From the NCBI GenBank assembly GCA_039794085.1, contig JBDIWC010000038.1:1-39980 (forward strand): a stretch of 39,980 nt of DNA. Reading direction: 5' to 3'. Below are positions 4,060-25,861 of the stretch, one piece after another. The translations under genes were made by a program, and so were the position numbers. The DNA comes from Gemmatimonadales bacterium. Its GTDB lineage: Bacteria; Gemmatimonadota; Gemmatimonadetes; Gemmatimonadales; GWC2-71-9. Within the stretch, counting starts at the first letter, position 1. Every line of letters starts with the position of its first letter. The notes under the pieces are model-generated. The model was given only the letters and a program-made list of their open reading frames with translations. It did not search any database and was not told the origin of the DNA.

Positions 4060-5508
4060 TCAGGGCACCGGCCTCCGCCGGGTCAGGGCCTCCACCTCCT
4101 CCAGATCGCGCGGCACCAGGCTGATCCGCTCCAGCCCCCGTTCCGTGATGACGTAGGAGTCCTCGATCCGGATTCCGGTGTTCGCATAGCGCACGACGGC
4201 CGCCCGCACCCTGGCGGCGAAGGACCGGTTGCGCCGGGTGTCCGGCAGAATGTCGAGGAGCTTTGGCGCGATGTAGAGCCCCGGTTCGATCGTGAACGCG
4301 TCTCCCACCTTGAAGATCCCATCCTCGTAGGCCTGCAGCGGGTCGTGCACCTCGAGGCCAATCCCGTGGGTGATCCCGTGAATGGCGAAGAGCATCACCT
4401 GGCGGCAGGAGGCGGGAGCCTGCTCACAATTCGCGGGCCACGGCGGATCGAAGAGCGCATCGGCTGCCTCCACCACGCCGAGCGCGGCGAGACCCCGGGC
4501 CCGGACCGCGACGGAGCTGTCCAGCGCCGCGGCGATGGACATCCCGGGCTTCGAGTTCCGCTCGGCCGCCGCCTGCGCCTCCCGCACGATCCGGTACACC
4601 TCCCGCTGCTCGGCGGTGAAGGTCCCGCTCACCGGGAGGGTGCGGGTCACGTCGGCGGCGTATCCGTTGTACTCCGCCCCCGCGTCGATGACGACCACCT
4701 CGCCGGGCTGCATTTCCCGCCGGTTCTTCATGTAGTGGAGCTGCAGGGAGAGGGGGCCCGACCCGACGATCGAGCCGTACGCCGGGCGTTCCGCGCCGCC
4801 GCGCCGGAAAGTGTACTCCAGGATCGCCTGGAGGTCGTACTCGTGCATCCCCGGTTCGATCCGCTTCATCAGCTCCTCGTGGCCGGCGTCGCTGATGGCG
4901 GCGGCCGTGCGGAGCAGGTCGAGTTCCGTCTCGCTCTTCCGGGCGCGGAGCTGATTAACGATCGGATGCGCGTCCCTCACCACCAGTCCGGCATGGCGCG
5001 AGGCGAGCGTGCGCATGAACTGTCCCCCTCGGGTCAGGGAATCGGCGGCCGCGAAATCGGCGGCGGCGAAGTCCCGGAGTGACCAGAACGGAAGCTCGCT
5101 TGCGGCGAGTGAGTCCACCACGCGGTCGAACTCCCCGACATCGCGGGAGGCGAGGCCCAGCTCGGTCATGAGGGTGGCGGAATCGGGCTCCTCCCCGTAG
5201 TAGAGGGCTCGGCGCGGCGCGGTCCGGGCCACGAACAGGGTCGACTGACCTCGACCGCCCCGCACCACCATCACCAGCGACGCATTGGCATGCTCGTATC
5301 CGGTCAGGTAGCGGAAGGCGGGAAGTTGATGGAACGGTCCGAAATCAGTGACCGGCGTTGCTCCCCCGAAGGCGACCACCACACCGTCTCCAATGCGCTC
5401 GGCGAGTGCCGCGCGACGGGAGGCGTACTCCTCGCGGGCGATTTGCGCCGAGGCCGGAGTGGCGGGCAGGAGGAGTCCACAGAGCAGAAAGGGGAGAAGG
5501 CGACGCAT
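4060..5508 (-). CDS. pepP: Xaa-Pro aminopeptidase (M24B), secreted
   Basis: Signal peptide; LRARKSETELDLLR, IDAGAEYNGYAADVTRT, HGIGLEVHD, FTIEPGLY, GIRIED motifs. Confidence 0.9.
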   Translation of the reverse strand: MRRLLPFLLCGLLLPATPASAQIAREEYASRRAALAERIGDGVVVAFGGATPVTDFGPFHQLPAFRYLTGYEHANASLVMVVRGGRGQSTLFVARTAPRRALYYGEEPDSATLMTELGLASRDVGEFDRVVDSLAASELPFWSLRDFAAADFAAADSLTRGGQFMRTLASRHAGLVVRDAHPIVNQLRARKSETELDLLRTAAAISDAGHEELMKRIEPGMHEYDLQAILEYTFRRGGAERPAYGSIVGSGPLSLQLHYMKNRREMQPGEVVVIDAGAEYNGYAADVTRTLPVSGTFTAEQREVYRIVREAQAAAERNSKPGMSIAAALDSSVAVRARGLAALGVVEAADALFDPPWPANCEQAPASCRQVMLFAIHGITHGIGLEVHDPLQAYEDGIFKVGDAFTIEPGLYIAPKLLDILPDTRRNRSFAARVRAAVVRYANTGIRIEDSYVITERGLERISLVPRDLEEVEALTRRRPVP

Positions 5509-21014: not shown

Positions 21015-21029
21015 GCTCTCCTGGCGGAG

Positions 21030-21191
21030 GAAGTGTGAAGTTGGAAGTTGGAAGTTTGAAGTTCGAAGGGGGAAAAGGGAAGTTCGAAGTTGGAAGTGTG
21101 AAGTTCGAAGGAAGCAGAAGCCCCGAACACACATCGGAGCGTCACCCCGGGAACGCCGGGGTCCATTCCCACGCGGGCATGGATTCCGGCG
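21030..21191 (+). repeat. GAAGTKB heptamer run (about 11 units, 21030-21110) + truncated CGTC doublet (21140-21191)
   Basis: Visible periodicity and match to doublet consensus. Confidence 0.8.
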
Positions 21192-21306
21192 GTGAGTGGG
21201 AATCCCGGGGAATAGGGCACAGCACGCTGCGCCCTTACGCGCCCCTTGCTCGGCCAGGTGCGGTGGCGAACAGACAAGGGACAATGATCAATGAAAATTA
21301 CCAGCA

Positions 21307-21376
21307 GGGAGTAGTCCCTTACGGACAAGATTGAACACAAGAAAGCAACAATATTTTGGGTGACGCTCGGAAACCC
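21307..21376. repeat. AT-rich dispersed repeat, copy 1
   Basis: First 34 bp identical to 39767-39800; similarity continues through GCAACAATATTTT and CGGAAACCC. Confidence 0.85.
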
Positions 21377-21480
21377 TTACGGGCAGCGAGTTTGAGGGAG
21401 TTTGGGAAGGCATCCAACTTTGAGGCCTCTCGGGAAATGCACTCGAGTCGCGGAGCGCGCCGTGACCAGGCGATTGGTGT

Positions 21481-21603
21481 TTCCCGGGGCTTTCGCCCCT
21501 TGCTCGGCCAGGGGAGGTGGCTCACGCCACCGAGGAGCCCGGGCGAACACCCGGCCGTGTGAACGGCCTCTCGCCGCCGAGCCCGGGGCGAAAGCCCCGG
21601 GAA
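21481..21603. repeat. Family-B long palindromic element (REPIN/MITE-like)
   Basis: Terminal inverted arms CCCGGGGCTTTCGCCCC..GCTCGGC; inverted homolog at 26014-26153. Confidence 0.8.
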
Positions 21604-21621
21604 ACCACACGACCCCGACGC

Positions 21622-21684
21622 GCCTCTTTGGTTCCGGCTCTGCCGGCATAGGGAATAGGGAGTAGGGGCGAGCGGCATTCGCCC
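21622..21684 (+). repeat. 32-bp hairpin repeat copy 2 (21622-21653) followed by GTAG REP (21662-21684)
   Basis: Matches 96-127 and the other GTAG REPs. Confidence 0.85.
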
Positions 21685-21710
21685 TGATTGCTCCTCGAAT
21701 CGGTACAGGA

Positions 21711-21739
21711 TTGATCTGATCGCTCGTGGCAGCTATATT
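21711..21739 (+). promoter_or_regulatory. Sigma70-type promoter TTGATC-N17-TATATT
   Basis: Near-consensus hexamers at exact 17-bp spacing in a GC-rich genome. Confidence 0.75.
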
Positions 21740-21745
21740 GCTGTT

Positions 21746-21814
21746 GCTATCCCCCCAGTCCCTTCGGGGGCCGGGCAGCGAGGCCGTGCCGAAAGGCCGG
21801 CCTCAGCTTTTTTT
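21746..21814 (+). ncRNA. Putative ~70-nt structured leader/small RNA upstream of NYN nuclease
   Basis: Hairpin 1 at 21754-21775 with cUUCGg loop; hairpin 2 at 21777-21808 with GAAA loop, followed by U7. Confidence 0.6.
21777..21814 (+). terminator. Intrinsic terminator between promoter and NYN gene
   Basis: GC-rich stem with GAAA loop followed by TTTTTTT (21808-21814). Confidence 0.75.
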
Positions 21815-21846
21815 GCTCCCCCCCCTCCCCCGGCTGGGTGGCTGCC

Positions 21847-22470
21847 GTGAAGACAGTGGTGTACGTCGACGGGTTCAACCTCTACTATGGTGCGGTTCGG
21901 CAAACACCGTACAAGTGGCTGGACATTCCCTTGATGTGCCGGAAACTGCTTCCACGGCACGAGATCACGAAGACCAAGTACTTCACCGCTCGCGTCGCCG
22001 GTCGCCCTGGGGATCCCGACCAACCCAACCGCCAGCAGGCCTACCTGCGCGCACTGCAGACTCGACAGGGAGTCGAGATCATCTGGGGCCATTTCCTGTC
22101 AAACGAGGTGCGAATGCCCGTGGCCGGCTGCCCACCAGGCGAGCAGCGCTACGAGCGGGTCATCAAAACAGAGGAGAAGGGCTCTGATGTCAACCTTGCC
22201 ACTCATCTTCTCGCTGATGGATTCCGTGGGGCCTTCGAGGCAGCCGTTCTGGTTACTAACGATTCCGACCTGACGGAAGCTGTTCGAGTGGTCAGACAGG
22301 AATTGGGACTGATCGTAGGCATCCTCAATCCCCACAAGCATCCATCACGCGAGCTGCTCAAGAACGCCTCATTCATGAAACCGATTCGCAAGGGCGTGCT
22401 CGCCGCCAGCCAGTTGCCGAACCCTCTCTTCGATCGGAACGGCGAGATCCGCAAGCCCCCAACGTGGTAG
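21847..22470 (+). CDS. NYN-domain (LabA/DUF88, PIN-like) putative ribonuclease
   Basis: VYVDGFNLYYG, KYFTA, EEKGSDVNLA, LVTNDSDL acidic catalytic motifs intact; GTG start 21847 (or 21838). Confidence 0.9.
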   Translation: MKTVVYVDGFNLYYGAVRQTPYKWLDIPLMCRKLLPRHEITKTKYFTARVAGRPGDPDQPNRQQAYLRALQTRQGVEIIWGHFLSNEVRMPVAGCPPGEQRYERVIKTEEKGSDVNLATHLLADGFRGAFEAAVLVTNDSDLTEAVRVVRQELGLIVGILNPHKHPSRELLKNASFMKPIRKGVLAASQLPNPLFDRNGEIRKPPTW

Positions 22471-22576
22471 CTGTCCACATCTCCCCACCACGGCGACCAC
22501 ACGGTTCGCCCCGACGGGTTGTCCCCCGCCCGACTCCGCAGTAGGCTCCCCTGTCCCCTTTCCGGATCCGATCTCG

Positions 22577-25347: not shown

Positions 25348-25563
25348 ATGGCACGTACGATTCCCGTCCACGATCTGACCGCTGAAGAGCGCGTCGAACT
25401 GATCGGCAAGCTCTGGGATAGCCTCGACTCGTCCCTGGCGGCGCCGATCACGCCCGCGTTGGCGGCCGAACTGGATCGTCGCGAGGCTGAGGCTGATGCC
25501 GCACCCGATGTCGGCCTGTCGTGGCGGGACATTCGGGACGACCTGCGCAAGAAACTGCGGTAG
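25348..25563 (+). CDS. Addiction-module antitoxin (TIGR02574-like)
   Basis: LTAEERVELIGKLWDSL..AELDRR..GLSWRDIR pattern; directly upstream of RelE/ParE-like gene. Confidence 0.85.
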   Translation: MARTIPVHDLTAEERVELIGKLWDSLDSSLAAPITPALAAELDRREAEADAAPDVGLSWRDIRDDLRKKLR

Positions 25564-25861
25564 GTGCGGCAGCTCCGTTCGCAAGGCGGCCCGGGCCGAG
25601 GTTGTTGCTGCGTTTGACTGGTATCTTGAGCGATCCCCCACGGCTGCGGGACGGTTCCTGGATGCGGTGGATGAGGCCATGCAGCACATCCAGGCGGATC
25701 CGGAGCGCTATCCGGTCATTCGGGGCCGCTTGCGTCGTGTGCTCTTGCGGCGGTTCCCCTACGGCGTCTACTACAAGGTCTATCCTTCCAGCATCAGCGT
25801 GGTTGGTGTGATCCACGGTCACCGGCACCCGGACACATGGGTGGGTCGCACTGACACGTGA
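25564..25861 (+). pseudogene. RelE/ParE-family toxin, frameshifted near 5' end
   Basis: GTG 25564 gives MRQL, but the toxin body (VRKAARAE..WY..F..PERYP..RRFPYGVYY..HGHRHP) is in another frame from about 25577. Confidence 0.7.

Follow-up and report, generated by a model that had tools for sequence, protein, structure and literature searches.

The locus described here raises the question of whether a short structured RNA, encoded between a promoter and a predicted NYN nuclease gene, is a partner of that nuclease and, if so, in what role. It lies in a 39,980-nucleotide stretch of DNA from a Gemmatimonadales bacterium (hereafter the window; contig JBDIWC010000038.1 of assembly GCA_039794085.1), in which an earlier note, made from the sequence letters, had seen a candidate type III-like RNA-antitoxin system. 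The RNA and the NYN gene form a real, widespread and apparently undescribed module.

The locus and its predicted nuclease

The earlier note had described a promoter, about 70 nt with a UUCG hairpin, a GAAA hairpin and a run of seven U, and an intact NYN gene about 30 bp further on, and all of these are present on the forward strand. A predicted -35 hexamer from the promoter scan (21711–21716) and a -10 hexamer (21734–21739) make up a promoter-like sequence, TTGATC-N17-TATATT (21711–21739), which agrees with the consensus at 9 of 12 positions and is one of two such sites between 20000 and 24500, where the mean for shuffled sequence is 0.4. From an inferred start near 21746, the predicted small RNA of ~69 nt (21746–21814) comprises an unpaired 5' leader, A-Y-C-C-C (21746–21753), a 9-bp hairpin with a UUCG loop (P1, 21754–21775), the GAAA hairpin, which is a predicted terminator stem (P2, 21778–21807), and the U7 tail of a predicted intrinsic terminator (21808–21814). 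The 70 nt from 21746 to 21815 fold with a minimum free energy of -37.7 kcal/mol (z = -3.19), with 2 of 200 shuffles equally stable. A simple terminator scan of the window does not list the P2 hairpin, probably because of its bulges. The NYN gene, with a GTG start and 207 codons' worth of protein (21847–22470, 207 aa), begins 32 nt 3' of the U tract. As had been remarked, no Shine-Dalgarno-like run is present in the C-rich spacer before this start; the absence is not general in the family, an SD-like 4-mer being present at 33 of 77 tandem loci.

The gene is flanked by M55 and M14 peptidase genes and has no antitoxin neighbour, in agreement with the earlier note, and no protein family is common to the neighbours of its relatives, the 146 nearest ORFs at the best 80 of 495 GTDB loci being varied under a crude longest-ORF rule. 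The source genome contains a single NYN gene of this type and one strong copy of the RNA (64 bits with the covariance model R1, described below), along with two weak matches of 21.6 and 16.6 bits. The module occupies a variable slot between the two peptidase genes (21192–22518, no strand assigned): in G110, a genome of the same genus, both flanks of the slot match at 95–97% and the slot itself is unmatched, holding an unrelated ~450-aa repeat-rich predicted lipoprotein that is RCC1-like by eye (L512). A ~380-nt sequence with long inverted arms in the slot (21301–21680, likewise unstranded) was considered as part of the module and rejected as a bystander, being a MITE- or REP-like multicopy genomic repeat (22 genome matches of at least 250 nt); copies are also found in same-genus genomes. 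Elsewhere in the window, purine-rich 7-mer short tandem repeats lie upstream of the M55 peptidase gene (21026–21109), with a similar run in G110, and an ordinary type II pair, a TIGR02574-family antitoxin and a ParE toxin, is encoded at 25348–25861.

The NYN protein matches Pfam NYN (PF01936; E 2.6e-9) and, over residues 3–207, the PADLOC HEC-09 profile (E 1.9e-41), and is without a match in NCBIfam or a real one in a sequence search of the PDB. Its alignment-based AlphaFold model (pLDDT 94, vs 33 for a single-sequence model) finds VPA0982 (PDB 2qip) and the MARF1 NYN domain as best Foldseek matches, which it resembles in fold and acidic active site. Residues D8, D114, D139 and D141 are invariant in 56 aligned sequences (the L039 homologue, with an in-frame stop, was excluded), as are W24, R62 and K111; 13 alignment positions are basic in at least 80% of sequences, and the conserved basic residues include R62, K111, K203 and R181. 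The NYN fold and acidic active site place the protein in the NYN.COG1432/LabA-DUF88 family, and fold and residues together predict RNase activity. Among the best 80 of 495 GTDB loci the closest homologues are from Gemmatimonadota. At least 8000 protein relatives were scored, and many annotated NYN copies carry nicB/hspA hydroxylase labels.

Conservation of the RNA and its association with NYN genes

Alignment of homologous loci and a search for covariation had been set beforehand as the check on the proposal, and the outcome favours it. The covariance model R1, trained on the window together with 76 loci out of the best 80 of 495 from GTDB, matches 79 of these 80 loci (76 of them the training set); at the sole exception, L009, the contig ends 53 nt upstream of the NYN gene and the last 14 nt of the RNA are visible. 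Judging from record titles and later loci, the carriers span some ten phyla. Pairing holds in 93.6% of the cells of the proposed structure, and both sides have changed in 19 of its 20 pairs (nine of nine in P1 and ten of eleven in P2, where 97% of cells are paired), a level reached by none of 500 shuffles, with slid controls at 40–50%; RNAalifold returns the same two helices. Because kinship inflates plain covariation counts, changes were also mapped on the protein tree, which gave 56 double changes that preserve pairing, where 9.5 co-changes were expected, and 1886 unpaired column pairs used as a control averaged 0.11 co-changes with a maximum of 3. The Rfam check that had been suggested yielded no matching family: a covariance search of Rfam 15 gave no relevant match, only an unrelated plasmid RNAI and a 14-nt chance hairpin.

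Conservation extends to unpaired bases. The unpaired leader positions, the UUCG loop and the C-G pair beside the bulge are 88–100% conserved (three leader columns at 94–100%; the P1 loop is UUCG in 68 of 77 loci), the C-G pair being an invariant one that adjoins a bulged base near the foot of P2, and the distal P2 stem-loop is free to vary. This is the pattern of a putative protein-binding face, with the leader as a candidate point of contact. A pseudoknot was considered and rejected, pairing between leader and P2 loop reaching at most 3 bp in 74 of 77 loci. Within the 49 nt that precede the RNA, 63 of 77 loci have a promoter match of at least 9/12, vs 2 of 152 control windows, and the -10 ends 4–7 nt before the fifth model position in 55 of these 63. 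Homologous RNAs end in 3–7 U per 9 nt (mode 5), and the U tails are weak in many of them.

Loci held out from the model gave a similar association. The RNA is present at each of the 14 viral NYN loci, although these represent only about six lineages. In a phylum sample of 151 genomes, 9 have the RNA at strict settings and 18 have a NYN match, and each of the seven NYN genes that are intact and at least 45% identical has an R1 match directly upstream (19.5–71.5 bits). Four broken NYN genes and one remnant in the same sample keep the RNA (G088, G079, G064, G143 and G124), and one further genome has the RNA alone; that the RNA outlasts a broken NYN gene is how the decay of a toxin-antitoxin pair would be expected to run.

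As sequence comparison shows, the spread of the module is patchy, on plasmids and prophages and beside restriction-modification genes. NYN relatives occur on 453 plasmid records, and also on prophages. Restriction-modification-type neighbours were found in 12 of the best 80 of 495 loci, a count that has no background control and includes several related loci, and in one case the NYN module lies inside a type I operon. The RNA is single-copy in the window and in nearly all loci. On a small pUA1144-type plasmid (42% identity) the terminator is preceded by four hairpin units, and in two relatives by five (L095, L504 and L505, 4–5 units); the last unit with the terminator on the pUA1144-type plasmid scores 28 bits with R1. 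Two tandem, diverged copies precede one NYN gene on a viral contig (L092, 1856–1988).

By inspection, most homologues at 27–36% identity combine a promoter and a C-rich leader with a hairpin of another kind and a terminator, and R1 scores on them are weak (10–23 bits), indicating that further RNA subtypes exist; L499 and L500 are less clear than the others. A second RNA type, with a long interrupted stem and a strong terminator, precedes distant NYN genes on proteobacterial plasmids (L498 ~1900–1990, L502 ~1405–1490, L503 ~1395–1480, L099 ~1878–1961), among them a Klebsiella plasmid family annotated hspA/nicB, and is not in Rfam. Longer leaders lie before NYN genes on small plasmids (L098 ~1770–1990, partly repeated; L100 1883–1968; L501 ~780–950), and an 8-nt loop-like motif is common to L098, L100 and L498. 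On a Thiothrix plasmid that encodes a distant homologue (L500, 932–2157), a 120-aa ORF overlaps the NYN start and a weak RNA-like match lies further upstream, possibly a three-part variant. At L412 and L426 a weakly matching NYN-like sequence (E ~1e-10 to 1e-12) lies ~120 nt after the RNA, possibly from another NYN subfamily that goes with this RNA. At L003 (2385–3609) the RNA is followed by a 5' NYN remnant and then by a fragment, which we take to be DUF1016-like, that continues in frame into a complete NYN domain; a displaced RNA was rejected here, as the RNA precedes the NYN remnant and the insertion follows. At L054 a second RNA copy (4982–5041), damaged at its 3' end, lies 1.4 kb downstream of the NYN gene; it comes after two small genes that resemble a type II toxin-antitoxin system and is itself followed by a MazG-like remnant.

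The RNA is also found on phage records without the nuclease. In a loose-pattern viral scan, six of 80 full-flank loci scored 36–57 bits, one 24.5 and the rest below 20, so the pattern alone does not yield high scores; a second loose-pattern scan gave three model matches in its first 80 loci, all already in the set. Ten phage records in all (including L105, L106, L212 and L367) have the RNA and no NYN match, in a search that was partly without a positive control; two are rated 100% complete and eight are fragments. Several of these copies have a terminase, a resolvase or tail genes nearby. Speaking against a role as mimics, only 2 of the 10 have a promoter match of 9/12 or better, two of five copies that were folded are no better than shuffles, and orphan RNAs arise on chromosomes too, via NYN loss; the eight fragments and the search partly without a control weigh the same way. 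A blastn search of the window RNA region against named phages returned nothing, and a prophage copy of the RNA matched its own record only. If the RNA is an antitoxin, the chances that its phage-borne copies serve in counter-defence seem evenly balanced.

Candidate roles of the RNA

The reading that we prefer is that the RNA is probably an antitoxin acting in trans, which binds the NYN protein and keeps the nuclease inactive; by analogy, the precedent of AbiF/RCd22 supports such inhibition. A small RNA functionally tied to NYN in a type III-like layout, as first proposed, has strong comparative support in its conservation, covariation, own promoter, independence of position and tandem-array variant, and in the lack of a conserved protein partner. 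The conserved basic residues of the NYN protein and the restriction-modification-type neighbours also count in favour of the antitoxin reading. The other role that had been suggested, guidance of the nuclease, is unsupported because the RNA alignment contains no variable spacer or guide segment and no cognate-specific complementarity was found. Under the antitoxin reading the RNA would be made in excess over the nuclease and, in the tandem layout, a weak terminator would let only occasional read-through into the nuclease gene. The protein-binding surface would consist of the C-rich leader, which is unpaired, together with the conserved junction of P1 with the bulged P2 foot, and binding would block the NYN active site. 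Shut-off of host transcription by a phage, or loss of the element, would lead to RNA decay and free the NYN protein, which would then cut cellular RNA, resulting in abortive infection or addiction.

It is possible, although unlikely, that the RNA is instead a required cofactor or scaffold of a NYN ribonucleoprotein, which activates the enzyme or sets its substrate and is no inhibitor. Linkage in trans and a conserved sequence fit a ribonucleoprotein equally well, the available text on HEC-09 does not report it as toxic (bioRxiv 10.1101/2024.01.29.577857), and a 58.9-bit RNA copy, with no NYN in the 632 nt covered, fills the gap between tRNA-Leu(TAG) and tRNA-Met(CAT) genes on the same strand (L468, 181–436), a possible link to tRNA metabolism. 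A cofactor of this kind is harder to reconcile with an RNA that has no variable guide segment and outlives broken or lost NYN genes, with copies in phage records without NYN, which are easier explained as inhibitors, and with a tandem array that resembles antitoxin arrays.

Less probable again is regulation in cis, with the RNA serving as a leader or attenuator that restrains NYN expression, perhaps with feedback from the nuclease. The protein-first search found the RNA directly upstream of 78 of 80 close homologues (best 80 of 495), in most loci on the same strand and at a median distance of 14 nt, which a cis element would predict just as well; such an element would also suit the weak U tails and the ability of the window leader to pair with the NYN start region. 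Moreover, the AbiF RNA acts in cis too (PMC12373285), so a cis role may coexist with a role in trans. The arrangement of the module in metagenomes argues against a leader. A scan by RNA pattern alone, in which ~1100 stretches were estimated, gave 80 full-flank loci among 120 listed, and 61 of these 80 score at least 30 bits. Among the 61, the RNA is upstream of NYN on the same strand in 25, downstream and convergent in 12, upstream and divergent in 9, and downstream on the same strand in none; 5 are without NYN despite flanks of 700 nt or more on either side, and 10 lack it but have a short flank. NYN-linked copies thus make up 46 of the 51 with a NYN match or flanks of that length, with the qualification that the 46 include a few NYN remnants (two at E 0.015–0.04) and some near-duplicates and that the pattern favours one subtype. 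In 21 of the 46 the RNA is divergent or convergent and cannot be the 5' end of the mRNA. On a FastTree tree of 131 proteins (midpoint root; proteins below 110 aa left out) the arrangement changes at least seven times, with three divergent and four convergent groups. In a Mycobacterium abscessus prophage, for example, the RNA lies just past the NYN stop codon on the opposite strand with its own promoter match, and such matches are less frequent in rearranged copies generally (6 of 14 convergent, 5 of 10 divergent). Since the RNA is retained in inverted positions and behind the gene, it cannot rely on being the mRNA leader; together with the rearrangements on the tree, these copies make it most likely trans-acting. 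Nor is an alternative antiterminator fold evident in the RNA alignment, where RNAalifold finds only the two helices, or the RNA spread before unrelated genes. We consider it highly probable, from position and conservation, that the RNA is a trans-acting partner of NYN. The terminator-before-toxin order that the earlier note had described is accordingly not essential.

Less likely still is antisense action of a type I-like kind, in which an antitoxin RNA would base-pair through its C-rich leader with the NYN mRNA at the ribosome-binding region. Action in trans fits and the unpaired C-run could pair with a G-rich SD, but cognate pairing is no better than non-cognate (-8.25 vs -8.15 kcal/mol for leader against start region; -22.18 vs -22.02 kcal/mol for the whole RNA), SD-like 4-mers are limited to the 33 of 77 loci noted above, and convergent RNAs barely overlap the coding region, 11 of the 12 ending 2–21 nt beyond the point where the gene is modelled to end. 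Terminators often have UUCG or GNRA hairpins with U tails, but a mere promoter and generic terminator travelling with a mobile gene is hardly credible for a unit in which P1 covaries, unpaired positions and the bulge are conserved across ~10 phyla, and which is kept when inverted or moved.

Known systems and implications

Type III toxin-antitoxin systems (ToxIN, AbiQ, CptIN, TenpIN) consist of a promoter, a non-coding RNA, a terminator and a stand-alone RNase gene (Goeders, 2016; PMC5086642). The NYN module has the same layout in the window, with a terminator-like hairpin (P2 and U7) between RNA and toxin gene, and similarly occurs on plasmids and prophages; repeat number varies in one NYN plasmid lineage as it does in toxI arrays, and the phage-borne copies recall pseudo-ToxI, the antitoxin look-alikes of phages (PMC5086642). 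In contrast to type III systems, the protein has a NYN/PIN fold and no ToxN homology or ToxN-like fold (Pfam, Foldseek), and the RNA is usually a single copy of two plain hairpins without a pseudoknot and is often inverted or behind the gene, the layout being absent in the 21 of 46 copies above. Tandem repeats are absent from the window and limited to the array-bearing relatives (L095/L504/L505, and L092 with two units). Complementarity to the cognate toxin mRNA, the mark of type I systems, was not found either.

[quoted passage not shown] Here too a short RNA stands beside a predicted RNase toxin, although the AbiF toxin belongs to the Abi_2 family, with links to Cas13 (PMC12373285), is unrelated to NYN and has a different RNA motif. 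Profile and structure searches found no Abi_2/AbiF toxin in the window protein. We take the AbiF toxin to be HEPN-type. The module resembles type III systems and AbiF in its predicted working but is not a member of either.

HEC-09, to whose family the window protein belongs, was described as a single protein in defence loci, and the main text mentions no non-coding RNA (Payne, 2024; bioRxiv 10.1101/2024.01.29.577857). Cloned with ~150 bp of upstream DNA it gave no defence in E. coli, and it is not among the systems that the available text flags as toxic under IPTG (same source); its Hma locus differs from the window, where two peptidase genes flank the NYN gene. This result, the chief observation against the antitoxin reading, fits a silenced toxin without its trigger and also a non-toxic enzyme. 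The NYN.COG1432/LabA-DUF88 group is listed as of unknown function, and the available text of that survey mentions no RNA partner (Matelska, 2017; PMC5499597). For PhoH2, lineage-specific structured RNAs have been described on either side of a PIN-domain gene (bioRxiv 10.64898/2026.10.21.760802), but that case involves a long RNA and a PIN-helicase fusion, and its main text does not mention NYN. The literature searched holds no description of a NYN-RNA pair, although the motif may still be listed in supplements or in the COMPASS or Weinberg 2017 sets; NYN is best read as a toxin fold not previously found paired with an RNA antitoxin in that literature.

Few folds are known among protein toxins held by RNA antitoxins, namely the type III families and AbiF (PMC5086642, PMC12373285). 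If the antitoxin reading is correct, the module would be a new family of RNA-controlled toxin systems and would add to these toxins the NYN/LabA-DUF88 family, which is large, is for the most part of unknown function and counts MARF1 among its animal relatives. The inertness of HEC-09 when assayed with its upstream DNA could be explained in this way, and phage-borne copies would be natural RNA-based counter-defence. With an RNA of ~65 nt and an enzyme of 207 aa, the module would be a very small and tractable RNA switch. More tentatively, and with the balance somewhat against it, much of the LabA/DUF88 NYN family may consist of anti-phage RNases held by lineage-specific small RNAs, which phages counter with stand-alone antidote RNA copies; this would be a new class of RNA antitoxin based on the PIN/NYN fold. 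The antitoxin reading would provide a testable function for thousands of genes, some of them labelled as nicotine-pathway hydroxylases.
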